Source: a virus
Taxonomy: Duplodnaviria > Heunggongvirae > Uroviricota > Caudoviricetes
Direction: 5' to 3' (one strand)
IMG/VR virus record: IMGVR_UViG_2627853678_000004
DNA: 15,215 nt
Positions 1-15,215 of the stretch are shown piece after piece. The position numbers and the translations under genes were made by a program. Every line of letters begins with the position of its first letter. Position 1 is the first letter of the stretch. The notes beneath the pieces are model-generated. The model was given only the letters and a program-made list of their open reading frames with translations, was not told the origin of the DNA and made no database searches.

Positions 1-588
1 CTTGGCAGTCTCAGCCTCTCTACTGGGCAGTCGGTGATAAAAAAAGCCGAATACCAGGGTGGAGATAATTACCACATCATGGTTAGAAACATAGTGTTGC
101 AGCGCGATGTACAGCACGGCGGAGGCAAATGAGACACCGGCATACAACTCTTTCTGGAATACCAGTGGGATACGTTTACAGAACATATCGCGCAAAACGC
201 CGCCAAACACGCCGGTGGTTACCGCCGCGACAACGGCAATAATTGGGCCGTGCCCCATATCCAGTGCAACCTGTGCGCCGATGATAGAAAAGACCACCAG
301 TCCAAGCGCATCGAGCACCAGAAACACTTTGCGCAGGTAAGGCATTACAGGAGCAACGATAGTGGTGAGTACTGCGGCGGTAGCGACGATAATCACATAT
401 TCCGGGTGTTTGACCCAGCCGAGCGGATAGTGGCCCAGCAGAATATCGCGCACTGACCCTCCGCCAATTGCGGTGGCGGTCGCAATAATAATTACGCCAA
501 ATGTATCCATGCGGCGTCGCCCGGCCGCCAGAGCCCCCGTCATGGCTTCGGCAGTAATGCCAACCAAATACAAAATGTGTAACAGCAT
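1..588 (-). CDS. yicG: UPF0126-family inner membrane protein YicG, 5' portion (3' end lies beyond the window start)
   Basis: Minus-strand reading from ATG at 586-588 gives [32 protein letters not shown]..., a hydrophobic protein with the two GxxxRD-type repeats of the UPF0126 family. A GGGAGAG Shine-Dalgarno precedes the ATG. The ORF is still open at position 1. Identification as yicG is from recalled sequence and its adjacency to dinD. Confidence 0.75.
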
Positions 589-879
589 GGTTCTCTCCCT
601 AAAAATCTGTCTGGCAGGGTAGCGATTTGTGCGTATTGTCACGATTGAGATTTTTTAAGGTGAGAGGAAATTGATAACTTGTAGTTATGTGAAATCGCTA
701 TTTTCTGTAGCGTAGATGCATTCTTCTGACTTCTTGTCTGAGAAAATGCATAAGAAAAAATAGGTTAAAATTGAGGGGTGGAAAAGAAAGGTGCAATGTT
801 TAGCCATTGTGTTCACCGCACCTGGACTTTGGCTTACGCATCGGGTATCTCAATCAACAAAAAGAGTTTTTAGTTTCTG

Positions 880-1704
880 CTATTTCTTCTCTGTAATTTT
901 TACACTGTTTTCCAACTGCTTGATGCTGACCTGCGGGGTCGGCAACTCCTCAGGCATGGTTCCGCCAAGTTCCTGAATGGTTTGCCTCACCTTGCTACCC
1001 ACGTCAAAGTGTGTGGTATTAGCTTGCTGTTTTGAATTCACGCCATCCCGCTTGAGTTTTTCTTCTGTTTGGGTAGCTCGAAAGAGATTAGCCGCCAGTT
1101 CTGTTGAACCCATATGATCCAGGATCTTCTGACTCTTTTTCAGCCCCTTCCGCTGATGGATGGCTTTCTGATCTAATCCACCATACAGCCCCCGGTAACC
1201 ATGATTCTGAAATATGGCGAAATCGATAGCTGTCGCTACCCCAGCTTGCTGCGCTGCCTCAACCAATTGTTTGTTATGTTCTTTCAATTCATTTCTCAGA
1301 AAAAGACGCTTTTCGTCTTCACGAAGTTGCCTGAAAGCTTCATCGTCAGCCAGCTCCTGCCGTCGGGTCTGGATAGCAAAATAAGTTTGCCCTGCCGCAA
1401 TAACCGGTTTCGCAGGGTCGCCGTTTTGTACTACCAGGTAACAGGCATAGCGGGAGAGATGAACATCTTCAAGTTCTCGTTGAGCCCCTGAACCTAATAC
1501 AACCATTTTGGTGGTTTCAACGAAATGGTCAGATGCAGCTTGATTGCTGGCTTCGCACGCTTGAGTCGCGCGGGCCAGTACCTTTTGAAAATTGCGCCAG
1601 TCCCGATAATCCAGTAACGGTGCCAATTCTCTAGCTGACCAAAATTCTTGCCCTTCAGTGCCATAATGCCGTATTTCTTCAAAAGGTTGATGATGTTCGT
1701 TCAT
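880..1704 (-). CDS. dinD: DNA damage-inducible protein D (DinD)
   Basis: The six-frame ORF 880..1716 has its first good start at the internal ATG 1702-1704 (MNEHHQPFEEIRHYG...), preceded by GGAG at 6 nt spacing. A perfect LexA box lies 44 bp upstream and yicG is the downstream neighbour, as in E. coli K-12. Identity is from recalled sequence. Confidence 0.8.
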   Translation of the reverse strand: MNEHHQPFEEIRHYGTEGQEFWSARELAPLLDYRDWRNFQKVLARATQACEASNQAASDHFVETTKMVVLGSGAQRELEDVHLSRYACYLVVQNGDPAKPVIAAGQTYFAIQTRRQELADDEAFRQLREDEKRLFLRNELKEHNKQLVEAAQQAGVATAIDFAIFQNHGYRGLYGGLDQKAIHQRKGLKKSQKILDHMGSTELAANLFRATQTEEKLKRDGVNSKQQANTTHFDVGSKVRQTIQELGGTMPEELPTPQVSIKQLENSVKITEKK

Positions 1705-1747
1705 TGCCCACTCCATGTGATATCGATTGCAAAGAAAGTAAATCTGT

Positions 1748-1767
1748 AACTGTATTTATATACAGTT
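1748..1767. promoter_or_regulatory. LexA (SOS) box upstream of dinD
   Basis: AACTGTATTTATATACAGTT is an exact CTGT-N8-ACAG palindrome. Its reverse complement AACTGTATATAAATACAGTT matches my recollection of the dinD operator. Confidence 0.75.
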
Positions 1768-1859
1768 GTGAGTATCTCACGTTCTCAGTGTGCTGGGCAA
1801 AAAAACATCGCAAAATCTGGAGCAGGCACGCAAAACAGAATTGAAGTTGCGGGGAAGAA

Positions 1860-1898
1860 AAATGCCGCTCTGTTTGAGTGGGCGGCATTTGTGAAGGC
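1860..1898 (-). terminator. putative intrinsic terminator between the DinD paralog and the dinD promoter
   Basis: A perfect 9 bp stem (AAATGCCGC at 1860-1868 pairing with GCGGCATTT at 1882-1890) encloses a 13 nt loop. On the minus-strand RNA it is followed by UUUUUCUU. Confidence 0.4.
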
Positions 1899-2054
1899 TG
1901 AAAAGTAAGAATTGGCGTTACGAGTTATTCAATGTTGAATCTGTTTATTGAGTAGGTTGATTAAAGCTGCGTGGTTGCTGGTTTTTTTATAATGCGTTTT
2001 TTCATTAGGTACACCCTTGTGTACACCGTAAAGTGATGTGCTTAAAGGCTGCGT

Positions 2055-2879
2055 CTATTTTTTATCCAGCTTCTTGGCGGCAGATTCTAATTGTTTGATG
2101 CTTTTTTCCGGTACGGGCAGATTCTCTGGCATTGTCCCGCCTAGCTCCTGGATTGTTTGCCTAACTTTCCGGCCGACCTCGAAGTGAGTTTCATTAGCTT
2201 TTTGCTTCGATTTAACATTATCTCTGCGGAGCTTTTCTTCTGCCTGAGTCGCTCGGAACAGGTTGGCTGCCAATTCGGTAGAACCCATGTGATCGAGTAT
2301 CTTTTGGCTCTTTTTAAGACCTTTTCGCTGATGGATAGCCTTTTGGTCTAACCCGCCATAAAGCCCCTTGTATCCGTGATTCTGGAAGATTGCAAAGTCC
2401 AATGTTGTTTCAACACCAGCTTGCTGTGCTGCCTCAACAAGTTGCTTGTTGTGTTCCTTTAACTCGTTTCGGAGAAAAAGGCGCTTTTGATCCTCGCGGA
2501 GTCGCTTGAATGTTTCATCGTCAGCTAGTTCTTGCCGTCTGGTCTGTATTGCAAAATATGTTTGCCCAGCAGCAATAACTGGCTTGCTAGGATCGCCGTT
2601 CTGCACAACTAGATAGCAGGCATATCTGGACAAATGAACATCTTCCAACTCTCGTTGGGCACCAGACCCTAGAACAACCATTTTGGTGGTATCAACGAAA
2701 TGGTCTGAAACCTCTTGGTTGCTGGTTTCACACGCCTGAGCTGCTCGTGATAGAACGTTTTGAAAGTTTCGCCAATCTCGATAATCCAGTAGTGGTGCCA
2801 AATCTCTTGCTGACCAATATTCCTGCCCTTCGCTTCCATATTGTCGTAAGTCTTCAAATGGTTGATGGTGCTCGTTCAT
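2055..2879 (-). CDS. DinD-like paralog (274 aa), probably element-borne
   Basis: Full-length ORF starting MNEHHQPFEDLRQYG..., roughly 85-90% amino-acid identity to the adjacent dinD by eye but clearly diverged at nucleotide level. Same GGAGTG-type Shine-Dalgarno. No CTGT-N8-ACAG box is visible in its upstream region 2880-3013. Confidence 0.75.
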   Translation of the reverse strand: MNEHHQPFEDLRQYGSEGQEYWSARDLAPLLDYRDWRNFQNVLSRAAQACETSNQEVSDHFVDTTKMVVLGSGAQRELEDVHLSRYACYLVVQNGDPSKPVIAAGQTYFAIQTRRQELADDETFKRLREDQKRLFLRNELKEHNKQLVEAAQQAGVETTLDFAIFQNHGYKGLYGGLDQKAIHQRKGLKKSQKILDHMGSTELAANLFRATQAEEKLRRDNVKSKQKANETHFEVGRKVRQTIQELGGTMPENLPVPEKSIKQLESAAKKLDKK

Positions 2880-3013
2880 TGCTCACTCCATGTATTGGCT
2901 TGATGTTCAAGTGTGGTGACTTTTACTGGCGCTACTGCTAGCGGAGAGACTCAATATCTCACATCCTGATTAATGTATGATAGAGGTATCCCACAATAAG
3001 GAACCAGCCAGCC

Positions 3014-3373
3014 ATGAGAATGACCAACCGCAAAAAAGAGATACTCAGCTACTTTGAGCCGGATAACCTCGAATGGGTGACAGGTGAGATTGGTGCGCCG
3101 CCGTTCGATGTATCGGGCGTGGCCTACCTGCTTCACGGCATGGTGTCGTTCGATAATCGCCACCAGCTCGAATCAACCCGGCGCACGCTGGAAAACATGG
3201 TTGCTGGTGGACTGCTTGAGCGGGTGACAGTGTATGAATCGCGCCAGATACGGCGCGGCGGTGAGACTAACGCAACGGTCGTGCGCTACGGTTTACCCGG
3301 TCAGTGCGCTGTTATGCGCGATACTGGCGGCGCTGATAACGCAATATCAGGTGAATACATGCGGGTCAGTTAA
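3014..3373 (+). CDS. hypothetical protein (119 aa)
   Basis: The only convincing plus-strand ORF in the window; non-repetitive protein-like composition (MRMTNRKKEILSYFEPDNLEWVTGEIGAPPFDVSG...). An AGGAA lies upstream, and 3020 is an alternative ATG. I do not recognise the family. Confidence 0.45.
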   Translation: MRMTNRKKEILSYFEPDNLEWVTGEIGAPPFDVSGVAYLLHGMVSFDNRHQLESTRRTLENMVAGGLLERVTVYESRQIRRGGETNATVVRYGLPGQCAVMRDTGGADNAISGEYMRVS

Positions 3374-3908
3374 TAGCCTGCAATCTGTCGTTGATGCGGC
3401 TCAGGTCGTAAACCCGGCGTTCAATATCCAGCATCAGGAAATTGTGGATCTCGGCCTGCTCAGGATTATCAGACTCTCTGGCCTGTAATAGCAATTCATT
3501 GTAACCATGCAAGCCGCCTGAGTTTTCCGCCGGGGTGGTGCCTTTCCCACGCAGGCAGCTAATGGGCTGATTGCTCGTATCGTGTGTTTGCTTCTCCAGC
3601 ACAATGACGCAATCCCACCAGTCGCCAAAGTCATACGTGTAAACCAGCTTGTCACCATCATTCTGGAGCGCTGCCCATAGTGGTGTGATTGCCGCATTAC
3701 CCATGCTTTCATCCTCACCCCATACGCGATACTCGCTACCGGGATCACCTTTACGCCCTTTCTCGAACATATACAGGTGTTCGTCATTCCAGCCAAAAGC
3801 CAACTGGATCACCGCGTGAAGTTCACTAAAGGGGATTTGCTCTGGAACCAGCACACGCCGCCATATAGGTGGTTTGCTGTCTCGGATGGTTATCTTTAGC
3901 TGGTACAT
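3366..3908 (-). CDS. pRiA4b ORF-3-like family protein
   Basis: Start placed at the internal ATG 3906-3908 (MYQLKITIRDSKPPIWRRVLVPEQIPFSELHAVIQLAFGWNDEHLYMF...), with AGGA 7 nt upstream. The YQLK...PPIWRR...GW.D.HL pattern is the recalled signature of the pRiA4b ORF-3-like domain. The six-frame ORF extends to 3956 without support. Confidence 0.6.
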   Translation of the reverse strand: MYQLKITIRDSKPPIWRRVLVPEQIPFSELHAVIQLAFGWNDEHLYMFEKGRKGDPGSEYRVWGEDESMGNAAITPLWAALQNDGDKLVYTYDFGDWWDCVIVLEKQTHDTSNQPISCLRGKGTTPAENSGGLHGYNELLLQARESDNPEQAEIHNFLMLDIERRVYDLSRINDRLQAIN

Positions 3909-3991
3909 GCAAATCCTGAATAAATGCGAATCGGAAGGATAACGATACTGACGCACTCACAATTCTGTAAAGGTGAATAAAGGTAATTTGC

Positions 3992-4213
3992 TTAATAAGC
4001 ATAAGTTACATGCGGAATAATCCCGTATCTACTGCGTGGCGCTGGCTTCTTCCACTGGTAGGCAGGCGCTCGCATCATCTCCCCGAACCGTTTGCGCCGG
4101 GCTGTATCAGCTTCAATAATGCGCTCCATTTCCCGAACCTCTGCCGGGGTAAGCTGGTGGCCTTCATGCTCCAGTTTAGCGGCTGTGATTGCGGCTATCT
4201 GCTGTGGTGTCAT
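3992..4213 (-). CDS. small hypothetical protein (73 aa)
   Basis: Internal ATG at 4211-4213 with AGGGG 8 nt upstream; product MTPQQIAAITAAKLEHEGHQLTPAEVREMERIIEADTARRKRF.... The longer ORF to 4369 adds only a low-complexity basic extension and runs across a strong hairpin. Confidence 0.35.
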   Translation of the reverse strand: MTPQQIAAITAAKLEHEGHQLTPAEVREMERIIEADTARRKRFGEMMRAPAYQWKKPAPRSRYGIIPHVTYAY

Positions 4214-4294
4214 GGTTGCCCCTGTTGCGTAGTTTTGGGCGATCAATATACTGTCCAAAACATAATTGCGCCGGGTATTAGTCTGTCCGCTCTC

Positions 4295-4321
4295 AAACGC
4301 CCTTTTGGGCGTTTTGCTTTT
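4295..4321 (+). terminator. terminator-like hairpin
   Basis: AAACGCCC-TTTT-GGGCGTTT is a perfect 8 bp stem with a 4 nt loop, followed on the plus strand by TGCTTTT. It lies in the leader of the 73-aa gene; functional strand is uncertain. Confidence 0.35.
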
Positions 4322-4482
4322 ACAGCTTCGGGCCAATATCTTTGGCAGCTTTCCCCGTCTTACGCTCAATCACGCCCGTGATATAGCTGCGCGTTCTGTT
4401 TCTCACTGGCTGGCCTCCTGCGAATTACTGCGCATTAACTGCGATCTGCGCAAAAAATGAATGAGAGATAATAAGCGTTTTT

Positions 4483-4568
4483 CTGCGTACTGCGCACCAG
4501 TGGCGCGAACCAGAATATTTTGGACTGCCTAAATCGAATATGGCTTCCAGCCCGCTACTGGCGCGGTT
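4483..4568. repeat. copy 1 of an ~86 bp conserved intergenic repeat
   Basis: CTGCGTACTGCGCACCAGTGGCGCGAACCAG...GGCTTCCAGCCCGCTACTGGCGCGGTTC aligns to 5268-5354 at roughly 85% identity, and the final 26 bp are identical. Confidence 0.8.
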
Positions 4569-4638
4569 CTCTCTTCATATGGGCTTTGAGTCTGTCCAGT
4601 ACAGTCCAGTATTTCAACATTGGTGACTATACGGATTG

Positions 4639-5016
4639 CTAACATGCGCCGCTTTTTTTAACCCTTCGCAGATCCCGCCTTGCTTGCATTGAAACGGCTC
4701 TCGCTAATCTCAGCTCAAGCCGTGCGATTCTGTCGGCATGTAGCCCCATGAGTCCGTTAATCAATGTCATCTCGCGCCATTCTTCTGTTCCCGGCGTCGG
4801 ATTATTCGCCAGTAATAGCCCGTATCTCTCAGCCAGCATGAGGTTTCTTGCACGATTTCGCACCAGCGGAGAAAGCGCCTCTCCCCCCTCAAATGGGAAG
4901 AATGCCCGCCGACTGCGTTCGCCATGTTTGACGGCATTAGTATTGCCCAATGGTGCGCCTGCGCCTTTCCGCTTGCCACCCCATCCCGATCTTGATTGTT
5001 GGCTATTTTTTTTCAT
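4639..5016 (-). CDS. small basic protein with a GxGxPxGNxNAxKHG motif, possibly terminase small subunit-like
   Basis: ORF with ATG at 5014-5016 (MKKNSQQSRSGWGGKRKGAGAPLGNTNAVKHGERSRR...). I recall the N-terminal motif from some phage small-terminase or DNA-packaging proteins. The Shine-Dalgarno is weak and the function assignment is tentative. Confidence 0.4.
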   Translation of the reverse strand: MKKNSQQSRSGWGGKRKGAGAPLGNTNAVKHGERSRRAFFPFEGGEALSPLVRNRARNLMLAERYGLLLANNPTPGTEEWREMTLINGLMGLHADRIARLELRLARAVSMQARRDLRRVKKSGAC

Positions 5017-5267
5017 TTAACGGCTCACTGTGCGCATTTTTGTGCGCAAAAACCTTAACAAACCCTAACAATACCTTAATAAAACTGTATATCTAACTTC
5101 CGCCATCTACTGCGAACTGATAGCGCCCAAGCCAGAAATATCAAGCCTCTCCACCATTTTGCGAATGCGCAATTCGCGCTTACAAATTACTGCGAATTCG
5201 CAATTTCTGTACGCAATGCCACCGTTAGCATTTGTCAGGTAGTACGCACGTTGAATACGCAGTTTTG

Positions 5268-5354
5268 CTGCGCACTGCGTACCAGTGGAACGAACCAGAT
5301 ATTTAGGACGTCCTGAATCACGATTTGGCTTCCAGCCCGCTACTGGCGCGGGTC
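5268..5354. repeat. copy 2 of the ~86 bp conserved intergenic repeat
   Basis: CTGCGCACTGCGTACCAGTGGAACGAACCAG...GGCTTCCAGCCCGCTACTGGCGCGGGTC; contains the perfect palindrome AGGACGTCCT. Direct repeat of 4483-4568. Confidence 0.8.
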
Positions 5355-5420
5355 TGGCGCTGCTAGGGTTTTAAATCCGTACTAAACAGTACTAAATTTT
5401 CCGCCGTTTGGGTGCGAAAC

Positions 5421-5732
5421 TTACTGCGAACCATCGCCCCCGCTGGTGGTATGCCGTTGCCTCTTGCCGCCATTTAACCGGAAGGCGTTACCGTTCGGTT
5501 GCGCTATCCCCATGCGGTGCTGAGTTTCGGTGACAGCTTTATGCAGGTCGCCAAAGTCCTCAACCTTCACGGGCGGGCGCTTCACGTTCTCCAGACACGT
5601 TTCACGGCGGCGCTTTATCCATTCCCGATCATCGTCCTCGGTGCATAACAGCATGACTTCCATCCATCGCGCGGCGGCGCGTCGGTACAGCCCTTTTGCT
5701 TCCAGATCCTCAGCTTTGCTGTCGTTTACCAT
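5421..5732 (-). CDS. PerC-family transcriptional regulator
   Basis: ATG at 5730-5732 preceded by GAGGGGGG; product MVNDSKAEDLEAKGLYRRAAARWMEVMLLCTEDDDREWIKRRRETCL..., matching the recalled PerC-family N-terminal pattern. It sits 11 nt downstream of the ssb stop. Confidence 0.65.
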   Translation of the reverse strand: MVNDSKAEDLEAKGLYRRAAARWMEVMLLCTEDDDREWIKRRRETCLENVKRPPVKVEDFGDLHKAVTETQHRMGIAQPNGNAFRLNGGKRQRHTTSGGDGSQ

Positions 5733-5743
5733 GTTCACCCCCC

Positions 5744-6205
5744 TCAGAATGGCGTTTCATCGTCGAATGGTGGGCGCTGGTCAAAATCATCAGGGGTGTT
5801 ATATAGCTCCCATCCCGGCGCGGATTGCGTTTCGTGGCCCCTGCTGGCTCCACTTGCTTTGACTGACTCGGCCCGCTTCCCGCCGGGGCGTACCGTTCTG
5901 GCGCTGATCACGCTGTCGGCTACTACCTGATACCCCTGCTGTGTACCGCCATCCTTGCCCGCCCACTGATTGACCTGCATCGCTCCGGCAACACTGACTA
6001 AATCGCCTTTAACGTGTCCTGCCAGTGCGTCGGCCTGTTTGCCGAATGCCACCACGCCCAGCCAGAAAGTAACCTCTCCGCCCTCTGCTGCATGGCAAGG
6101 CAGTGCCACCGCTAAACGCCCCATTGTCATGCTGCCGCCGCTGTTTGTCGTTCTGGTCTGGGGATCTGCCACCAGCCGCCCGTAGGCTGATATCTGTGCT
6201 GTCAT
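5744..6205 (-). CDS. ssb: single-stranded DNA-binding protein
   Basis: 153 aa with OB-fold-like N-terminal region, a Gly/Gln-rich linker and the acidic C-terminal tail FDDETPF typical of bacterial and phage SSBs. GAGGT Shine-Dalgarno. Confidence 0.75.
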   Translation of the reverse strand: MTAQISAYGRLVADPQTRTTNSGGSMTMGRLAVALPCHAAEGGEVTFWLGVVAFGKQADALAGHVKGDLVSVAGAMQVNQWAGKDGGTQQGYQVVADSVISARTVRPGGKRAESVKASGASRGHETQSAPGWELYNTPDDFDQRPPFDDETPF

Positions 6206-6307
6206 TTTGCGAATACCTCGAATTATTAGTTTTGCTAATGAAGATTGCCCGGCACCGTCTTATTGTGGGACACCTTCGCCAGATTTTTTTGTATATAACA
6301 AAAATAG

Positions 6308-6567
6308 TGTTGTCTCTGTTGTCTTTGTTGTCTCACGGCTCTACAGGCCGCGCCACGTCTGGGTTTTGCTGAGACAACATTTGCAATTTCGTGTTGTCTC
6401 ACCCGGCATAAATGTTGTCTCACTGCCTGCCGGACTAAAAACACACGTTCGCCCTGTTGTCTCAAAATGGCTAAATGTTGTCTCAATGTTGTCTCAAAAA
6501 TTAAAATAAAATCCTTATAAATCAATGTAACTTACAAAATGAGACAACAAAGACAACAGAGACAACA
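6308..6567. repeat. iteron array and AT-rich tract: putative replication origin
   Basis: Eleven copies of TGTTGTCTC or its complement, counting two one-base variants. A perfect 27 bp inverted repeat (6308-6334 against 6541-6567) brackets the region, and an AT-rich tract lies at 6496-6540. The array sits directly 3' of the primase-helicase gene. Confidence 0.6.
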
Positions 6568-6592
6568 CTAAAACTACGTATGTGAAAAAAGA

Positions 6593-9352
6593 TTATTCTT
6601 CTGGCTGGCTGCTTTCCTCATCCATGAAGTTGAGCACATAAACGCGAATTTGCCGCCCTCCTTCCCTTACCCGCCCCTGATAACCTCGCCCGCTCGTTGG
6701 TGGTGTTAGCATTCCTGCATTCTTGAGAACTTCGGCAAACTGCCTGACATTAAAACCCCGTGCGATCTCCTGCTCAAATGTTGCCGGGAAGGTGTAGAAA
6801 ATTATCGGGTCGCCGTCGTGGTTCCCCTTCTTCCTGTACCCGGCTAAATCACGGATGGGTAAATCGCGCGGGTCATAACCCAGCGGCGCGAATCTACTCA
6901 GCCCATAGGCATTTAAAAACGCCTCCGTCTGCTCGATGATCTGCTGGTGCTCTTTGTTCCCCGTGCCGAACTCTTTCAGCCATGCGTTATAGGTGTGCTG
7001 TATCGCATCCCGGCACGTTTGAGCATCCCAGCCAGTAACCACGCCACCCAGCAGTAAAGCGGCCTCCAGAATGGCGAACCTCGCCCCTACACGGTGAACC
7101 TGTTCCCCATAGTCAGCAGGGATTAGACTTCGCCATCGGGCTTCACACTCACGAACGGCATCAATCGCCTGCTGCTGGTGGTCTGAAAGCCATCTAATCC
7201 ACTCCCGCCCGGCAGCGCCATGATGGTGCTGGTAAGCGTCTTTCAGCGCGTCGGCGTGATCTTTCCCTGTCTGGTGCTCATGAAAGCGCACCGCCTTACT
7301 CAGCGGGATATTCAGCAGTCGCACCAGTTGCCCCGCTTTTGTCTTGCGTCCTGCGGTGGCGATGAACGTTTCTAAATCCATTTCCCCGGTGCTGATTGCC
7401 ACGGTGCGCCAGCGTTTCAGATCCCGGTTGCCTCCTTCCTTTGCTCCCTGCAATTTCCCCACGCCGTTAAACAGGGCATAGGCAGACTGAGAAACGCTTA
7501 TCGGGTCTGCGCCCTGTCCGACTTCATCCAGCGGCATCAGCCCGTCATTGTGGGCGGCGGCCTCGTTTATCAGCCCCAGCGCCGTCCCATACCACGTCAG
7601 GCGCAAGGCATCAGGGTTGCCGTAAAGACTGCTCGCCACGTTCTGCGTGGTTGTTTTCCCGGCGCTCGATTGCTCATAAAAATGAATCCCGAATCCGTCA
7701 CGATCTGCCACCCCGATTAATGGCGCTGCCAGTGCTGCGGCGATGCCTGTCATCATCGCGTAGTTGCCGTATGCCAGCCGCGCAACACTGTTAAGCCAGC
7801 TTTCAGGCGTTCCTGCTACGGTATACCCGGCAGCGGCTGAACTGCGCCCGCTGAACAAAACAGGCCGCTGAGGTGTGCCGATGATTTCCCCGTCCGGCAT
7901 GATGTATGCCCCACACTGCCAGCCTGTAGCATGAGCAACGCGCCACAATTCACGCGAGCCGCTTCGCTGTAACCAGTCGGCAAGAATCGCCCGTAGGCTG
8001 TTTTTCGTTGTGACGTTGACGCCACCAGCTTTCAGGGTGCGCCAGCCTTCACGCTCGCCAATATCAGCCAGCGGGATAGCCGCTGTTGTCCGTATGCCTG
8101 CACCGAATGCCAGCCATGAGATAATAAGATACTGATCTTTGTCGTCGCGTCCCGTGCCGATAACCTCCAACGGTGAACATAACCAGCTTTCAGCGTTGAT
8201 GATCTCCCCGCTTTCCTTGTCCACCTTCGGCGTTACCCAGAAAACGCCATCTTTTCGGCTCTCAATGTGGGGTTTTAGTGGGTCTTTCTCTGGATGGTCA
8301 GTTTTACCGCCCTCAATGGCCTGCAATCGTGGTTTAACGGCTTCCCCTTGAATCTGGTACATCGAGTCGTTAAACGCAGCCGTAGCGACTTCCAGCCCGT
8401 TTTGCTGGTGGTGGTCGTTCCAGTCGGCTTTGTAGTCTGTCGGCGGCAGTGCCACCCATCCAGCCACGGACAAGGCGGCTTTCTCTGCGGCCTCCCTGCC
8501 TGTATTGGCTTCTCCGTTTTGGTGGTGGTCGTTGTCTGCGGCGATGATTATTTGTGCCTGTGGATACTTCCGGCGCATCACTTCGGCAACGGGTAGCAGG
8601 TTGCCCGCGTCAATTGCTGCCACTGCCAGCGCGTCCGGGCGCATCAGGTGAACTGAAAGGGCCGTCGCCAGCCCCTCGGCAATTAAAACGCTCTGCGGCG
8701 ATTCTGGCGCGTTTACGGCGTGATATGCCCCGCGCTTTGCCGAACCCGTCAGAAGTCGCTTTTCTCCATGCGGTGTAATGGTCTGCGCTGCTGCCACTGC
8801 GCCGGATTCATCCACCAGCTCCAGCAATAACGAACCATCTGGCATTAGCGGGTAATTAAACCCGGTCAGCCCTTTTGATTGCAGGTACTCAGCTTCGCCC
8901 TGTATGGCTCTCTGGCGCATTCCGGCATACAGACGGGAAAACGTAGCCCGGCGCTGCTCTGCGTCCTCTGCGGCCTTTTTCTGTCGCTCCTGCTCATGCC
9001 GCTGGCGGTCTGCGGCTAACTGCGTCTGTCTCTGGCTGGCAGCGTCTGGTGCTGGTTCTGCGGCCCGGTAATCAATACCCAGCACATCAGCGGCAAGGTG
9101 CGCCGCCTCCGTGGTGTCGCAGTTGTTAACCCGTTTGATTAAATCCAGCCCATCGCCCGCGCCGCACTGATTGCAGATAAAGCTACCTCGCCCGTTGTCG
9201 TCGAATCTGAAACGGTCTTTCCCACCACATGCAGGGCAGGGGGCATGACGGCGCGATGAATCAGGAACGTCGATAGACAGGCCAGCCAGCACATAAGGCC
9301 ATTTACCAGCGGCGGCGCTGGTCACTTCGCGGATAATGTCGATATTACGCAT
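6593..9352 (-). CDS. primase-helicase (zinc-ribbon, TOPRIM and P-loop domains), P4 alpha-like replication protein
   Basis: 919 aa. N-terminal CPACGG...FICNQCG zinc ribbon; TOPRIM-like segment (AEGLATA...IIAADNDHH...GEANTGREAAEKAA); C-terminal P-loop region (SSAGKTT Walker A-like, MPLDEVGQ Walker B-like). GGGAGG Shine-Dalgarno before the ATG at 9350-9352. Confidence 0.85.
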   Translation of the reverse strand: MRNIDIIREVTSAAAGKWPYVLAGLSIDVPDSSRRHAPCPACGGKDRFRFDDNGRGSFICNQCGAGDGLDLIKRVNNCDTTEAAHLAADVLGIDYRAAEPAPDAASQRQTQLAADRQRHEQERQKKAAEDAEQRRATFSRLYAGMRQRAIQGEAEYLQSKGLTGFNYPLMPDGSLLLELVDESGAVAAAQTITPHGEKRLLTGSAKRGAYHAVNAPESPQSVLIAEGLATALSVHLMRPDALAVAAIDAGNLLPVAEVMRRKYPQAQIIIAADNDHHQNGEANTGREAAEKAALSVAGWVALPPTDYKADWNDHHQQNGLEVATAAFNDSMYQIQGEAVKPRLQAIEGGKTDHPEKDPLKPHIESRKDGVFWVTPKVDKESGEIINAESWLCSPLEVIGTGRDDKDQYLIISWLAFGAGIRTTAAIPLADIGEREGWRTLKAGGVNVTTKNSLRAILADWLQRSGSRELWRVAHATGWQCGAYIMPDGEIIGTPQRPVLFSGRSSAAAGYTVAGTPESWLNSVARLAYGNYAMMTGIAAALAAPLIGVADRDGFGIHFYEQSSAGKTTTQNVASSLYGNPDALRLTWYGTALGLINEAAAHNDGLMPLDEVGQGADPISVSQSAYALFNGVGKLQGAKEGGNRDLKRWRTVAISTGEMDLETFIATAGRKTKAGQLVRLLNIPLSKAVRFHEHQTGKDHADALKDAYQHHHGAAGREWIRWLSDHQQQAIDAVRECEARWRSLIPADYGEQVHRVGARFAILEAALLLGGVVTGWDAQTCRDAIQHTYNAWLKEFGTGNKEHQQIIEQTEAFLNAYGLSRFAPLGYDPRDLPIRDLAGYRKKGNHDGDPIIFYTFPATFEQEIARGFNVRQFAEVLKNAGMLTPPTSGRGYQGRVREGGRQIRVYVLNFMDEESSQPEE

Positions 9353-9366
9353 TCGTATTACCTCCC

Positions 9367-9489
9367 TCAGTGCGCCGCTGGCATTTCAGGCAAGCCGTTT
9401 TCATTCAGATCAGCAATGAATCCATCATGCAGCTCTGCCAGCGTTTCACGTCCGAACGGGGTCAGCTCGCCGCGCTCCGTGTCGATCAT
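9367..9489 (-). CDS. unannotated 40-aa ORF, translationally coupled to the primase-helicase
   Basis: Not in the supplied ORF track. Its ATG (9487-9489) overlaps the stop of the 168-aa ORF as ATGA, and its TGA (9367-9369) lies just before the primase Shine-Dalgarno. Product MIDTERGELTPFGRETLAELHDGFIADLNENGLPEMPAAH. Confidence 0.35.
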   Translation of the reverse strand: MIDTERGELTPFGRETLAELHDGFIADLNENGLPEMPAAH

Positions 9490-9992
9490 GGCCTGATAAA
9501 AACAATGGCGTTCGCCGTTCCCTGCTCAATGCCGTAGCGCTCAATCATTGCGCCCTCGATGTTATTCGCCATCGCCAGACGTTCCGCGAACGGGTAAACC
9601 ACAATCCCCGCCGTGCCATTGGAGTAAATCGCTACTTTTGACGTTGTGCCGTCAGCCTCCGTGACGGTGGTTGTGCCGTTTTCGCGCTTCATCTCAGAAA
9701 TGAACGTGGTAGCAATCAGCCAGCGCCACATAGTGACGTTATGCTGCGCGGTAAAGTCGAACCAGCCACGCGCCCCGCCATCAGCAACGGCAAAATGTAT
9801 GGCGTATCCGATATTTGGCGTATCGTCGTACTCTCCGGCATCAAGGCGGTTTACCGCGCTCTCGTAGCTGATAAGAGCAACCTGCTCATATCCCCCGGCA
9901 TCATTGCGGGTCATGATATTGACGCCGTGCGGTGTGGCTTCGGCGTGTAATAAGTCGGCATTTCCCGATTTAATGGTCGGTGCGTTGCTCAT
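9486..9992 (-). CDS. hypothetical protein (168 aa)
   Basis: ORF in an ATGA-overlap chain with its neighbours; non-repetitive composition. Family not recognised. Confidence 0.55.
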   Translation of the reverse strand: MSNAPTIKSGNADLLHAEATPHGVNIMTRNDAGGYEQVALISYESAVNRLDAGEYDDTPNIGYAIHFAVADGGARGWFDFTAQHNVTMWRWLIATTFISEMKRENGTTTVTEADGTTSKVAIYSNGTAGIVVYPFAERLAMANNIEGAMIERYGIEQGTANAIVFIRP

Positions 9993-10252
9993 GCGCTGCC
10001 CTCCGCATCAATTCTGGCTATATCGACAATCGTCAGGACTTTACTCAGCCAGCAATACGCGATGGCTGCTTGCTCAACTTCGAGGAGTGGTAATAAATCG
10101 GTCATAACGTGAGCCAGCCCATTGCGGGCGCGGGTCATGCGTTCTGCTGTTCGGTCTGCCAGCGTAAAATCATCCGGGTATGATTCTTTGCGAGATAGCA
10201 TCGCTTCGGCTTCCAGCTCTGCCGGGTGGCGGTAGATGGTATTTATGTTCAT
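9989..10252 (-). CDS. hypothetical protein (87 aa)
   Basis: Its ATG (10250-10252) overlaps the upstream stop as ATGA, and its stop overlaps the next start as ATGA. Confidence 0.5.
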   Translation of the reverse strand: MNINTIYRHPAELEAEAMLSRKESYPDDFTLADRTAERMTRARNGLAHVMTDLLPLLEVEQAAIAYCWLSKVLTIVDIARIDAEGSA

Positions 10253-10428
10253 GCTGCCACCTCACGAATGCGGGTAATCTGGATGTGGGAAAGGCGTTCA
10301 TTTCTGGCCTGATTTAGCGCCTCAGCTTTGGCGCTGATCGCGCTGCGGGCGTCAACGATATAAACGAACTCGACTAATTCGCCGCTCCGGGCGGTGGCGC
10401 ATCCTGCAACACGGAAGTAATTAAGCAT
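10249..10428 (-). CDS. hypothetical small protein (59 aa)
   Basis: ATG at 10426-10428 with AGGGGG 6 nt upstream (MLNYFRVAGCATARSGELVEFVYIVDARS...). It overlaps the upstream stop by 8 nt. The six-frame ORF start at 10458 lacks a Shine-Dalgarno. Confidence 0.45.
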   Translation of the reverse strand: MLNYFRVAGCATARSGELVEFVYIVDARSAISAKAEALNQARNERLSHIQITRIREVAA

Positions 10429-10612
10429 GTGCGCCCCCTGTGCGAATACGTCCGGCAAAAAAGCAAACGTGATCCCGCGCCAGAATGCGGCGGGCTTCCT
10501 GCTCAGTTTCTGCGGCGATATGGTGAATTTTGGCGGTAATTGTCGGCATGTCGCGGCGAACGGCTGCGATTAACCAGATAAATTGTGGATTTTGGGTAGG
10601 GGTAGTAGCCAT
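10421..10612 (-). CDS. small protein (63 aa), possibly Icd-like
   Basis: ATG at 10610-10612 with GAGG upstream (MATTPTQNPQFIWLIAAVRRDMPTITAKIHHIAAETEQEARRILARDHVCFFAGRIRTGGAHA). Resemblance to Icd-like small proteins of P4-type islands is from memory only. Confidence 0.4.
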   Translation of the reverse strand: MATTPTQNPQFIWLIAAVRRDMPTITAKIHHIAAETEQEARRILARDHVCFFAGRIRTGGAHA

Positions 10613-10781
10613 GATGGCAGCCTCTATACAGTGAATTTTGAATTCACCACCAAGAGACGCCAATCTCAGACTGGTGGTGAGCTGAACAAGGTTGGCGTAA
10701 CCGGCCTGTATAGACACCGGCCTTCCTTTCGGAAGCCTCATCCAGCCCACCATAATTTGGGTGCGCAGGAATTTTGCCGAC

Positions 10782-10804
10782 AAAAAAACACGCTTAGTGC
10801 GTGT
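10782..10804 (-). terminator. putative intrinsic terminator or attenuator in the leader
   Basis: On the minus-strand RNA, ACACGC-loop-GCGUGU (6 bp stem, 5 nt loop) is followed by UUUUUUU. It lies inside the long non-coding-looking region upstream of the small-ORF/primase operon. Confidence 0.35.
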
Positions 10805-11132
10805 CGGCACTATACAGGTTATCGGGACGCCAATCCCGGCACCTGATTTTGCAGGTGCGCTATAACCATAAACCGGGTTGGCGATAGTCGGCAAGCCCTT
10901 TTTTATGGACTCGCAAAACTCACCTTCGCGCGTGCGCGTACTGGTCGCAAAACTCGAAAAAAACTTAGGATTTATTAGGATTCGCAGCCCAATTCTCAGC
11001 CCAGAAAACGCCTCTAAAATGTCGTCATTTGTCGCAACGGCGCGGCGATGAATGTCAGGTTTTGACAGGTTGTAAGGGTTAACATTTGTTAACAGGCTAG
11101 CCAGATTAAAGGCTTCTTTCTGGGCGGCAGGT

Positions 11133-11315
11133 TCATTCAGTATCACGGCGCACCTCCACGAACTCCTTAACGAATCTCTCCAAAGGCTGAACACATGGCG
11201 ACTGATAGCCCTCGCGGTAAAAGGTCACTCGGTTATGCTCGACGCGCTGTACGGTCACTACAGCCCCGTGCGAATCCTTGTAACGGCTTCCCGGCATCGG
11301 ATTATGGTTACGCAT
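11133..11315 (-). CDS. hypothetical small protein (60 aa)
   Basis: ATG at 11313-11315 with GGAGG upstream (MRNHNPMPGSRYKDSHGAVVTVQRVEHNRVTFYREGY...). Overlaps the antirepressor stop by 8 nt. Confidence 0.5.
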   Translation of the reverse strand: MRNHNPMPGSRYKDSHGAVVTVQRVEHNRVTFYREGYQSPCVQPLERFVKEFVEVRRDTE

Positions 11316-12140
11316 GGTTTACCTCCAGACGTTTAGCGAGCCAGCGTTGCGACAGGCGGGTGAGTTCTCCTTTGGGCTGCTCATATTCCATGCCCATATC
11401 AATTAACGTGATATTGGTGCTTTCGAGATATGAGAGGTGCTCAAGCTGTTCTGCGTTCATATGGTCGCGAGGTTCGCCAGAATAGCCATTTATCCGCGCC
11501 CACTGCTTAGCAGTTAGCCCACCAAGAACGATACGAGAAATCATATTGCTCTCGTTTGTGTAGTGGTGTTGCTGCGTCGTTTTACCCATCTCGGCACGGG
11601 CCATATTCAGCGCATCGCACATCGGCTTAAAGTTGTTTGCGGCACTGATACGGGCTTTTAGCTGGCGACGATAGCGGGCGGCGATTTCAGGCACGCTACG
11701 CTGTAATTCTTCCTCGCACTGGATGAAATAACGGCGGATAGCGCGGCCCTGTTCGGTGCGTTCGATCATTGCCAGTTCTTTCGCCATTCCGACACTTAAC
11801 AGATAGTCTTTGCCGGGTCTGCCAGAGTGCTTAATCTTGCTGTAAGCCGCGCCATTCGGGCTTTTCCCCAAATTTGGGGAAATAGTTTTATGGACTGAGT
11901 AATCGTGCCCAATGGTGAAGTCATATTCAGAGATGCGATCAGTGATCCATGTAGAGAAGTCTTTTCCCACGCCCAACGCTTTGTGTAACGCTTTTGCGCT
12001 AACAATATTGGTTTCACGCCCACCGATATGACCAGGAATAACCGGGACAATTGCGGCAAATTCATTACCGTTAATTGTGCCTGATAGGCGTTCAGATGAG
12101 GGGCGGCCTCAGAAATTAATCTGCTTTTTTCGATGTTCAT
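11308..12140 (-). CDS. phage antirepressor (AntA/KilAC-type); 5' end is in a different frame from the conserved body, possible pseudogene
   Basis: Conserved body in one frame (open 11308-12108): ...IVPVIPGHIGGRETNIVSAKALHKALGVGKDFSTWITDRISEYDF...DYLLSVGMAKELAMIERTEQGRAIRRYFIQCEE.... That frame has no ATG, GTG or TTG start with a Shine-Dalgarno before the TTG at 11976. The only good start (GGAG plus ATG at 12138-12140) is in another frame that stops at 11796. Confidence 0.55.
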
Positions 12141-12152
12141 TTTCAGTCTCCG

Positions 12153-12587
12153 TTAGGCGGCGGTGAGATTGTCCGGGTATAGATTGAGAATGTCGGCAAT
12201 TTCAGGCTGAGAAAGTCCCTGATAGCCCCCAGCGTCGGCGTTATGGTTCACAAGCCGAATAACTTTTAGAACGTCACCGCGCCCGGTAAAGCGATAGCGT
12301 AAATGTGACCCGATCCCGTCGGGATTCTTTTCGTCGATACGCTCTAACTGAATATCAAGCCTGCGTTCTAACTCGCTGGCGTAGTTCCTTCCAGACGAAA
12401 GGCGGCAGTAGCGCAGAATGTCGTTTTCTGTCCATCCCTCTACCCCAGTGCGTAGCATATAGACGCGGGCGCGGTGCTTCTTCGGTGTGCGGCGTGGCGC
12501 TTGTGTGGTGGGCGCTGGTGGCGTAACATCAGATCCGCGAATATCTATGTTAGCCGCCTGCTGTCCGGGGCGGTTTTCTTTTTTCAT
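12153..12587 (-). CDS. hypothetical protein (144 aa)
   Basis: Its ATG (12585-12587) overlaps the AlpA stop as ATGA. Basic, Pro-rich N-terminus followed by a globular region. Family not recognised. Confidence 0.55.
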   Translation of the reverse strand: MKKENRPGQQAANIDIRGSDVTPPAPTTQAPRRTPKKHRARVYMLRTGVEGWTENDILRYCRLSSGRNYASELERRLDIQLERIDEKNPDGIGSHLRYRFTGRGDVLKVIRLVNHNADAGGYQGLSQPEIADILNLYPDNLTAA

Positions 12588-12805
12588 CAGGCCACCTTCC
12601 CGCGACGCTCTGCCAGCCAGTTGTTAATCTCTACCGCATCAAAGGCGGTAATCTTCTCGCCCAGCTTTACCGGGCGCGGCAGAACCCCATTGCGAACTTT
12701 GCGATCAATGGTGGAAACGCTAACGCCCAGCAATTCAGCAAGGCGGAAGCGTCGGATATAGCCAGATTGGGGGATTGTGTGGGTTGTTGCGTTATGTGTT
12801 GCCAT
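12587..12805 (-). CDS. alpA: AlpA-family transcriptional regulator / excisionase-like protein
   Basis: 72 aa with the helix-turn-helix pattern RLAELLGVSVSTIDRKVRNGVLPRPVKLGEKITAFDAVEINNWL, characteristic of AlpA-family proteins found next to P4-type integrases. Confidence 0.8.
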   Translation of the reverse strand: MATHNATTHTIPQSGYIRRFRLAELLGVSVSTIDRKVRNGVLPRPVKLGEKITAFDAVEINNWLAERRGKVA

Positions 12806-12879
12806 ATGTCCCGTAACCTCTTTTGATGGTTGTTGCTTCGTTACGGGTATGATGGGAGCAATAGATTGTAATGTATCGG

Positions 12880-12916
12880 AATTATTAGAAAACTCCCCGG
12901 AATTTTCATAATTCCG
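12880..12916 (-). terminator. hairpin immediately after the stop of the AT-rich gene (terminator or operator-like)
   Basis: CGGAATT-TTCAT-AATTCCG is a perfect 7 bp stem at 12898-12916, followed on the minus-strand RNA by GGGGAGUUUUCU. An additional CGGAATT direct repeat lies at 12877-12883. Confidence 0.3.
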
Positions 12917-13840
12917 TTATCGGTTGACTCCCCCTTTTCGCAGCCAATCTATAAGCGTCTTATCATCATCCGGGAGTGGTAGCTCCTCACCTTTATTGTT
13001 AGCTTTATTTCTCAGTTGTGTAATGCTGCCTTTTAAATCACTATCGGTTAAGCCTATACGTTTAAGTAATGCGACAATTAGTCTCATCTGTTTTTCTGTT
13101 GTTTTTACTGGTTTTCCTACATTCATTTCCGTCGGCGGTAAGGGAATAACACCTCCGTTAATCATGCTTTTAATCGGCTCGCCTGTGTCTATTGCGTCTT
13201 TGAGTTTTAAAATGGTATCTCTGGCAATAAATAGATCGGAAGTTGTCAAAGTCTCATTAAGCGCAGGTTTTCGGCTCTCACTTAACTGAAACCCTATGCT
13301 TTCGGCTAGTTGTCTGTTTAGCGTAGGTAGCCAGCTCTGATTAAAATATCTATCGCTAATTATCTGACACGAAAGGCCAGTCTTCTCGCGGAAAGTGTCC
13401 CATCCGAACGGCCTGAAAATTGTCGTGTCTATCACCCTTGCCCTCTTAGAATAAAGAAGACTTTCTATTTCACTGTGTCCCAGACACCATAGCCCGTTCG
13501 CCAATCCTCTAAATAAAATAAGCCCACTATCTGTTTTGTATGCGTCATGTTCGGTGAGCGTGGAATTAAAATGAGATATATAGTTGCCCTCACGAAAAAG
13601 AAATGATGAGTTTCCTTTGTGTTCGTGATAAAACTCAATTGGGTCTTTTATATCTTTACCGCCTATAAAAGCCAAAGTAGAAGAAAATCCTCTCATCATT
13701 ATACACAACGGTATAGCCCCAATAACTCCATAGTGAAGTAAATCATCTGTATCGCATTGCAAAATACTAGCTGCCCTGTCGAGCTTAAAGTATTCCATAG
13801 GTGGGATTTTAATACTGCTGTGGGCTTCTTTTTTGGTCAT
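12917..13840 (-). CDS. hypothetical protein (307 aa), AT-rich orphan gene between integrase and AlpA
   Basis: First ATG at 13838-13840 with GGTGA upstream; the six-frame ORF start at 13855 is a GTG. Sampled 60 bp windows are about 33-45% GC against about 58% in the primase gene. No family motif recognised. Confidence 0.6.
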   Translation of the reverse strand: MTKKEAHSSIKIPPMEYFKLDRAASILQCDTDDLLHYGVIGAIPLCIMMRGFSSTLAFIGGKDIKDPIEFYHEHKGNSSFLFREGNYISHFNSTLTEHDAYKTDSGLILFRGLANGLWCLGHSEIESLLYSKRARVIDTTIFRPFGWDTFREKTGLSCQIISDRYFNQSWLPTLNRQLAESIGFQLSESRKPALNETLTTSDLFIARDTILKLKDAIDTGEPIKSMINGGVIPLPPTEMNVGKPVKTTEKQMRLIVALLKRIGLTDSDLKGSITQLRNKANNKGEELPLPDDDKTLIDWLRKGGVNR

Positions 13841-13955
13841 CGCGTCACCTTTCACGCTGTGCCTTAAAGAGTGATTGAGCCAGGCGGTAAGGCTTCCCGC
13901 TTTTCGCCCCGTCGGGCTAGGCTCAATCTGTCCTCTGATTCTTTACATATCTTGG

Positions 13956-15215
13956 TTACTTCGCCTTTCTCAGCGGTGTAACGTTGTACTCTTCGCCGCG
14001 CTCCAGTGCCACCAGCAATCCCGCCCACTGTGTTAACGCGGCCCGGCGTTCATCAAAGTATTGGTGGCGGTTATAGATACCCTCCACGCCTTTAATTTTG
14101 TGGTTAAGGCATCTTTCTGCGACTACAGGATCAACGCCCAGCGCGGCTAAATGGGTGCGGGCCGTGCGCCGGAAGTCGTGAATAGTGAAATTCGGCACGT
14201 CCGGCATTTCAGCGCGAACCTTCGCCAGCGCAACGGGCAGGGTGCTTTCCTGAATATGGGGGATCATGCGGTTTTGCATCTTTCTGGCTGGCAGTACCCA
14301 TGCGCTGTTGCATGAGAACGTTTTAAGCTCTCTCAGCCATTCGACTGCTGGCGGTGCTAATGGAATGTCTATAGCGTCGCCGTTTTTGCTGCGTTCCTCT
14401 GGCAAGCGCCATACGGCTTTATCAAGATCGAACTCCTCCCAGCGGGCGGCGCATAACTCCATTTTGCGGACGCATAACGCTAACAGTAATTTGAACGTGA
14501 TTTCATTCTGGCGACTGAAACCCTTAGCCGTGCGCATGGCTTTGAATAGCTGGATTAACTCATCGCGTGTTAGCCAGCGGTCGCGGCTAACCTCCTTCCC
14601 TCCAGCGTCTGCCACCTCAAAGGCTGAACAGGGGTTAATCTCCAGCGCGTGCCGTTTGATTCCGTAGTCGAATATGCGGCGCGTCCATCTCAGCACGTCC
14701 GTTGCTATGGTCGGCGCTCCACGGTCAACAATACCTTTCAGCATGTCGTCGATATGGCGCGGCTTCACGTCCTCTACCTTCATGCTGCCAATGCAGGGGT
14801 TTATATCTTTGTCGATACGGCGGCGGAGTATATCGGGGTGCTTCCAGCGGGGCAGTATCTGACGTTCAAAGTATTCAGCGGCAAGCTCTGAAACGCGCAT
14901 GGCGTTTTTTTCTGCTTCCATCTTCGCCAGTGCTTCGGATTTCCGCTCCTGCTTCTCCCCGGCAACGTCATAACCCAGCGCAACACGCGCCGAAAGCTCC
15001 TTTGCTGTCTCTCTGGCCTTTGATAGTGATAGCTCGCTATACGAACCAATTAGCATTGCGCGGGACTTCCCTGCGAGTTTATAGCGGAATCTCCATGTGG
15101 GGGTTTTGTCGGCTTCACGGTAACGCAGGTATAAGCCGTTCCCGTCCGCCCGTCCCTCGAATCGCTCTCCGGCCTTTATCCACGCGCGGATCTGCATGTC
15201 TGTGAGTTTTGGCAT
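13956..15215 (-). CDS. int: tyrosine recombinase / integrase, P4 family
   Basis: 419 aa; N-terminus MPKLTDMQIRAWIKAGERFEGRADGNGLYLRYR is typical of P4-type integrases. C-terminal catalytic region has HDFRRTARTHL and GIYNRHQYFDERR. The start codon is at the last base of the window. Confidence 0.9.
   Translation of the reverse strand: MPKLTDMQIRAWIKAGERFEGRADGNGLYLRYREADKTPTWRFRYKLAGKSRAMLIGSYSELSLSKARETAKELSARVALGYDVAGEKQERKSEALAKMEAEKNAMRVSELAAEYFERQILPRWKHPDILRRRIDKDINPCIGSMKVEDVKPRHIDDMLKGIVDRGAPTIATDVLRWTRRIFDYGIKRHALEINPCSAFEVADAGGKEVSRDRWLTRDELIQLFKAMRTAKGFSRQNEITFKLLLALCVRKMELCAARWEEFDLDKAVWRLPEERSKNGDAIDIPLAPPAVEWLRELKTFSCNSAWVLPARKMQNRMIPHIQESTLPVALAKVRAEMPDVPNFTIHDFRRTARTHLAALGVDPVVAERCLNHKIKGVEGIYNRHQYFDERRAALTQWAGLLVALERGEEYNVTPLRKAK

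Follow-up and report, generated by a model that had tools for sequence, protein, structure and literature searches.

The frame break in antA of a putative chromosomal island very probably reflects a homopolymer error of Ion Proton sequencing

Is the antA gene carried on this DNA broken, recoded or simply misread? In the window (the whole 15,215-nt stretch that was analysed), the conserved body of an AntA-family protein lies in one reading frame, and the start codon with its Shine-Dalgarno sequence opens another. The first-pass annotation proposed three readings of this arrangement, namely a recent inactivating frameshift in a decaying element, a sequencing or assembly indel, and recoding. The two-frame layout that it described is borne out on the minus strand in every coordinate: a GGAG Shine-Dalgarno (12151-12148) lies 7 nt 5' of the ATG at 12140, this ATG opens a frame of 114 codons whose stop ends at 11796, and a second frame, preceded by the TGA 12111-12109, stays open from 12108 until a stop that ends at 11308. 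The second frame, which encodes the body, is -1 relative to the frame of ATG 12140, and the two overlap over 313 nt (12108-11796). The features of the locus are as follows.

12148 to 12151, minus strand: Shine-Dalgarno GGAG, read from the sequence, 7 nt before ATG 12140.
11308 to 12140, minus strand: antA/AntB antirepressor family gene, 833 nt here and 834 nt (277 aa) in all relatives, with 1 base lost at codon 21.
11796 to 12140, minus strand: 114-codon ORF, in which codons 1-20 are the authentic N-terminus and codons 21-114 are out-of-frame read-through.
12080 to 12081, minus strand: lesion site, GG (CC on the plus strand) in place of GGG, from alignments and a 70-nt probe (deleted allele in 0 of 633 records).
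11755 to 12003, minus strand: AntA domain (PF08346), which covers residues 47-129 in the intact protein and is here in frame -1 with respect to ATG 12140.

The body frame was said to have no usable start codon, and this is what we find: its earliest ATG, GTG or TTG is the TTG at 11976, followed by the GTG at 11970, and both lie within the AntA domain. A non-canonical start was considered for this frame and rejected, given that only ATT and ATC codons are found 5' of TTG 11976 and that the homologues all start at the ATG equivalent to 12140.

Alignment to intact homologues, the check suggested with the first-pass annotation, places the indel at GG 12080-12081, in codon 21 of a 277-codon gene, where one G of a GGG is missing. 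Relatives read TAT CAG GGC ACA (Y19 Q20 G21 T22) at this position, and the window reads TAT CAG GCA CAA. In the alignments, TATCA-GGCAC of the window faces TATCAGGGCAC in EcPF20 and PT62 (96% nucleotide identity), and also in MP1 and a Logan contig, which were aligned later; near the start of antA the missing G is the only difference from any of them. With the G put back, the encoded protein is identical to WP_113976358.1 of strain EcPF20. The frame discontinuity is not a matter of chance; it stems from a single-base difference from every relative.

The deleted allele is confined to this sample among the sequences searched. Matches to a 1-kb probe were found in 787 complete E. coli records; among those listed, the span in each record was the query plus one base, and each coincided with a feature named "antA/AntB antirepressor family protein". 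With a shorter probe of 70 nt, centred on the lesion, matches came from 633 complete E. coli records (631 genomes), and a record was scored as lacking the deleted allele if its identity was below 99%. The top identity was 98.6%, which equals one gap, none of the 633 reached 99%, and the deleted allele is therefore present in 0 of 633. PGAP annotates an intact 834-nt CDS from the same ATG in EcPF20, PT62, SCU-308, 268.2 and MP1, a single intact 277-aa ORF being what the records whose annotation was examined contain. In a collection of 15 billion proteins, the intact 277-aa protein occurs in 105 contigs, and 277-aa forms dominate among the members listed of two clusters (2,809 and 88 members). 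By exact look-up, the same collection holds neither the 114-aa product nor the 222-aa product that would start at the TTG, and the 220-aa fragment starting at the GTG, which marks the deleted allele, is found in a single contig, from run SRR1765575.

These comparisons bear directly on programmed recoding, in which a -1 ribosomal frameshift or transcriptional slippage would join the ATG frame to the AntA body and yield a full-length protein. The shift needed is indeed -1, and a slip after CAG that re-reads the G would restore the wild-type YQGT; this restoration, however, follows trivially from the loss of one base in a run. As in programmed -1 frameshifting of dnaX, IS3-family transposases and the phage tail chaperone G/GT, there are two overlapping frames with the downstream domain in -1, but here no heptamer is in register, the overlap is not conserved and the relatives have one ORF. 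A search for slippery heptamers and long A/T runs over 12140-11796 returned none in register within 12108-12003. No X XXY YYZ heptamer occurs in the -1 register from the stop at 12111-12109 up to the AntA domain at 12003. The sole A-rich heptamer (A AAA AAG, 12130) is out of register and 5' of that stop, and there is no run of at least 7 A/T on which a polymerase could slip. The two-frame layout is absent from all relatives (0 of 633), the annotations examined showing one 834-nt ORF. We therefore reject the suggestion of recoding, to which we attach next to no probability.

The origin of the sequence is informative. The window is nt 1-15215 of GenBank JXRF01000022.1 (GCA_000832005.1), a contig of a draft genome, and the genome announcement describes an Ion Xpress library, an Ion Proton run at ~101x coverage and de novo assembly in CLC (PMC4384488). 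The draft comprises 453 contigs and 5,305 CDS for 4.9 Mb (PMC4384488); near-identical complete genomes of 4.8-5.0 Mb have ~4,700-4,900 annotated features. The draft is labelled strain E24377A (PMC4384488), and the closest complete genomes listed for the region are SCU-308, CFS3313, EcPF20 and others. The chemistry has also left a physical trace at the start of the contig.

1 to 38, plus strand: untrimmed sequencing adaptor, with no E. coli match before position 40.

This remnant consists of the last 14 nt of the 454 B adaptor (CTTGGCAGTCTCAG) followed by Ion Torrent trP1 (CCTCTCTA(C)TGGGCAGTCGGTGAT), the trP1 copy having one extra C; the adaptor sequences were identified from PMC4712552 (Table 4) and PMC7221428. 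E. coli sequence (the yicG 3' region) begins at about position 40, and bases 1-38 should be trimmed off. Both the announced Ion Proton platform and the trP1/454-B remnant at 1-38 thus point to a flow-based platform, as a homopolymer artefact presupposes. A long-read error at a Dcm or Dam motif was considered separately and discarded: the lesion site is neither CCWGG nor GATC, and the platform is Ion Proton.

Comparison of the contig (40-20615) with the complete genome of SCU-308 reveals a pattern in which every indel is a deletion. There are six 1-nt deletions, all six in homopolymers (C2, A3, A6, C3/G3, T8 and C4), and two substitutions, of which EcPF20 shares one; insertions are absent. Within the window (40-15215), SCU-308 differs by the two substitutions and four of the deletions (4031, 6296, 9497 and 12080), and EcPF20 by one substitution, one 2-nt polymorphism that also occurs among complete genomes, and the same four deletions. 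The contig backbone at 15216-20615 (~5.4 kb) has no substitution relative to the complete genome and two further 1-nt deletions. The deletions are listed below, the last two lying beyond the window.

4031 to 4032: CC to C, in the last sense codon of a 61-aa ORF, which consequently reads on to 73 aa.
6296 to 6298: AAA to AA, in the ssb-primase intergenic region.
9497 to 9502: A6 to A5, by which a 208-aa ORF is cut to 168 aa (9486-9992, minus strand).
12080 to 12081: CCC to CC on the plus strand, in the minus-strand gene antA, a frameshift at codon 21.
JXRF01000022.1 nt 17147: T8 to T7, in the rph-pyrE spacer.
JXRF01000022.1 nt 17278: CCCC to CCC, a frameshift within pyrE.

The deletion in the CCCC run splits pyrE, a housekeeping gene for which the deposited annotation has no gene call. 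CDS mapping shows that the remaining 16 CDSs lying wholly in the window (element and flanks) encode proteins identical to those of complete genomes, and the only other damaged genes, pyrE among them, also carry 1-nt homopolymer deletions. The density of deletions is ~1 per 3.4 kb of contig; at this rate the whole assembly would contain about 1,400 of them. An excess of like lesions in the same assembly, including one in a housekeeping gene, is what a flow artefact would produce, and so is a change of homopolymer length (GGG to GG) that is absent from near-identical genomes (0 of 633).

The same pattern weighs on the possibility that the deletion is genuine. According to this reading, replication slippage in the GGG very recently removed one base and inactivated antA in this isolate, such that the ATG would give a 114-aa nonsense product and the AntA domain could be translated only from TTG 11976 or GTG 11970, as a fragment shortened at its N-terminus. 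Accessory genes of integrated elements do decay, and residues 19-21 are a patch that varies (YQG here against SLS in the related island EcCIMP1), suggesting that the region is not tightly constrained. Loss of one base from a run close to the 5' end would also be a classic inactivating lesion, as in slippage pseudogenes of decaying prophages and islands; unlike in those, the rest of this element is intact save for lesions of the same type, and the allele is in no other genome. It is a singleton both among the 633 complete records (0 of 633) and in the 15-billion-protein collection (one contig). It also comes with five companion 1-nt homopolymer deletions in 20.6 kb and at most one private substitution, and one of the companions would render the strain a pyrE auxotroph. 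E. coli lineages diverge by roughly 1 indel per 10 substitutions in mutation-accumulation studies, a ratio far exceeded here. As a rough gauge, and supposing this 1:10 ratio, the probability of at least five indels among six private events is ~5e-5. We therefore disfavour the view of a decaying element with a recent inactivating frameshift: 16 other CDSs are intact, and the other damage consists of 1-nt homopolymer deletions, pyrE included.

A second assembly sharpens the comparison. Run SRR1765575 appears to be the run behind JXRF01, judging from sequence identity that extends to the private deletions. Its Logan re-assembly departs from the deposited contig at only two places: at 9497 it reads A6 in place of A5, which leaves the 208-aa ORF intact, and at 17147 it reads T8 in place of T7. 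The deletions at 4031, 6296 and 12080 and that in pyrE are common to both. The two assemblies thus differ at two of the six deletion sites and concur at the antA site. Because they differ at A6 and T8, homopolymer length is ambiguous in these reads; and because the re-assembly reproduces the antA deletion, this deletion is not a mistake of the CLC assembler but the majority call in the reads.

As a separate observation, Logan assemblies also show the A5 allele at 9497 in two unrelated runs (ERR2098936 and ERR14117370). The ERR2098936 assembly has an intact antA, and in it both the Ash/Icd-like gene and the 208-aa ORF are called in two pieces. Position 9497 seems to be prone to error and does not look like a marker of lineage, with either recurrent error or real slippage at the A6 tract.

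The re-assembly cuts both ways for a genuine deletion. The antA lesion is present in the CLC contig and in the Logan re-assembly alike, while two of its companion lesions are contradicted by the latter, and the platform is known for exactly such errors (PMC3623719). We consider a genuine deletion unlikely, if worth keeping in mind. Two related proposals fare worse: a phase-variable on/off switch of antA by homopolymer slippage, and a mismatch-repair-deficient mutator in which the indels are real. Both would account for the finding that all six deletions are homopolymer-length changes. Phase-variable tracts, however, are typically at least 7 nt long, and the antA tract has only 3 nt; its length does not vary among 633 records. 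In a mutator, many transitions and occasional +1 insertions would be expected as well, and neither is observed. For switch and mutator alike, the disagreement of the assemblies at A6 and T8 indicates measurement error and not a fixed allele. We regard such a switch or mutator as scarcely credible; even taken jointly, recoding and a phase-variation or mutator background are very unlikely.

We conclude that the antA frame break is, with high probability, a one-base homopolymer error of Ion Proton sequencing in a gene that is ordinary and intact. The GGG at codon 21 would have been under-called as GG in most reads of the run, so that the consensus would lose one base of an otherwise intact 277-codon antA/AntB-family gene, which would thereby appear as a 114-codon ORF from the true ATG and a start-less AntA body in the -1 frame. 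The lesion, its absence from relatives, the platform, the adaptor remnant, the deletion-only pattern and the disagreement between assemblies are direct observations, from which we infer that the GG at 12080-12081 is one of the run's homopolymer errors. The earlier option of a sequencing or assembly indel is accordingly supported, more exactly as a read-level base-calling error, since a second assembly of what is apparently the same run repeats the deletion.

Errors of this kind are documented for Ion Torrent data. Run-specific "high frequency indel" errors were reported at ~1 per 1-2 kb of reference, and of those that were strand-asymmetric, which were mostly C and G deletions, 82% lay in homopolymers of length 2-3; such errors are said to give frameshifts in assemblies (PMC3623719). 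In a related finding, Ion Torrent genomes are over-represented among those excluded from RefSeq for many frameshifted proteins (PMC12046094). The antA lesion resembles the errors described by Bragg et al. (2013; PMC3623719) in arising on a flow-based semiconductor platform, in being a single G/C deletion in a 2-3-nt run, and in being reproducible within one run, hence kept in the consensus with a frameshift as the result; the density in the window's contig, ~1 per 3.4 kb, is of the same order as 1 per 1-2 kb. It is unlike them in that PMC3623719 studied the PGM and not the Proton, and in that the best-matching subclass is defined by strand asymmetry, whereas the present lesion is known from the consensus only. 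Two further points speak against an artefact: the antA deletion is found in an independent k-mer assembly (Logan) at a nominal 101x, where a GG majority call would also be expected of a real mutation, and a run of 3 nt is short compared with those in which flow under-calls classically occur.

The element that carries antA has the gene constellation of a Gram-negative phage-inducible chromosomal island (PICI), with an integrase, an alpA gene and a pri-rep primase in ~10-15 kb and no structural genes; neither capsid nor tail genes are present in the island.

13956 to 15215, minus strand: int, integrase.
12587 to 12805: AlpA-family HTH protein gene.
6593 to 9352: Zn-ribbon/Toprim/DUF927 primase gene.

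Gene constellation, synteny and 95% AntA identity argue for an EcCIMP1-like PICI, EcCIMP1 being an experimentally mobilised PICI of E. coli (PMC11773190). The antA product of EcCIMP1 (WP_001019374.1; PMC11773190) has 277 aa, starts at the same ATG and is 95% identical (263/276) to the intact form of the window's protein. The neighbourhood in common comprises int, an alpA-like HTH gene, a 144-aa ORF, antA, DUF4222, an Ash/Icd-like gene, small ORFs, the Zn-ribbon/TOPRIM-DUF927 primase, PerC and PRiA4_ORF3; the window's element also encodes an SSB beyond this set. In contrast to EcCIMP1, which adjoins tRNA-Thr/proA, the element lies between yicC and dinD, its residues 19-21 are YQG and not SLS, and its antA copy is one base short.

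Several further observations concern the island and its surroundings. Between ssb and the TOPRIM/DUF927 primase gene, a 9-nt unit, TGTTGTCTC, is clustered in both orientations at 6308-6334, 6455-6497 and 6542-6567. These clusters look like iterons of an island replication origin, and the Logan contigs break at them (6308-6567). Window positions 40-1704, with yicG and dinD, belong to the chromosome and lie outside the island. Two full-length dinD genes with a Bro-N domain (880-1704 and 2055-2879; 85% protein identity) represent the chromosomal copy and an island-borne neighbour, and an 80-nt direct repeat, 84% identical, is found at the 5' ends of the two. This suggests that the island integrates beside or into the dinD region, bringing its own dinD copy. 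A direct-repeat search across the element for an att core gave no convincing core, the dinD 80-nt repeat being the only one found. Between the dinD copies, at 1935-1941, a TC dinucleotide present in some complete genomes is missing both here and in SCU-308, and a C/T substitution is private to this sample; this polymorphic spot may lie near the island boundary. Position 15215, the end of the window, is the first base of the int start codon, and the int-proximal island end and the att site consequently lie outside the window.

What antA may do in such an island can be approached from its domains. The body frame and the repaired, intact protein both match AntA (PF08346) with 76 bits against a cut-off of 27 (E=3e-21) over the full 68-position profile, and for the intact protein PHROG anti-repressor Ant families gave E-values as low as 1e-36. 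The body had been described as AntA/KilAC-like. The AntA part of this description stands, and the KilAC part does not, as the intact protein has no match to PF03374 even at E<=1. For its C-terminal half, PHROG families labelled "transcriptional regulator" and "anti-repressor" are the sole matches, a search of NCBIfam with the intact protein gave no match, and a profile search with the 114-aa product gave no family match at all. The lesion lies 5' of the AntA domain, in the short variable patch of residues 19-21.

The gene owes its antirepressor name to homology only, and the EcCIMP1 orthologue likewise is labelled "antirepressor" by annotation (PMC11773190). What has been demonstrated as the induction switch of Gram-negative PICIs is AlpA; the helper phage activates its transcription (PMC6092414). 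The AlpA protein encoded at 12587-12805 is identical to that of the complete genomes. The AntA-like gene is not known to act in induction, so that a lesion in it, even if real, would have no obvious effect on the response to a helper. We therefore find no support for the earlier argument that antirepressor status matters for whether the element can still respond to a helper. Should the GG allele be real, which we think improbable, it could make this a natural knock-out of a conserved PICI gene, or some antA product could still come, at a low level, from unprogrammed -1 slippage at CAG-G; the strain would then be a ready tool to ask what role the AntA-like protein has in Gram-negative PICIs.

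In sum, the frame break in antA itself brings no new biology, and its chief value is one of caution: drafts from flow sequencers such as this contig contain genes that seem frameshifted, decaying or recoded every ~3-4 kb, here including the housekeeping gene pyrE and two island genes besides antA. The strain would, on the reading of a homopolymer under-call, carry the usual intact antA of an EcCIMP1-like phage-inducible chromosomal island, and antA should be counted as intact when the gene content or competence of this island is scored.
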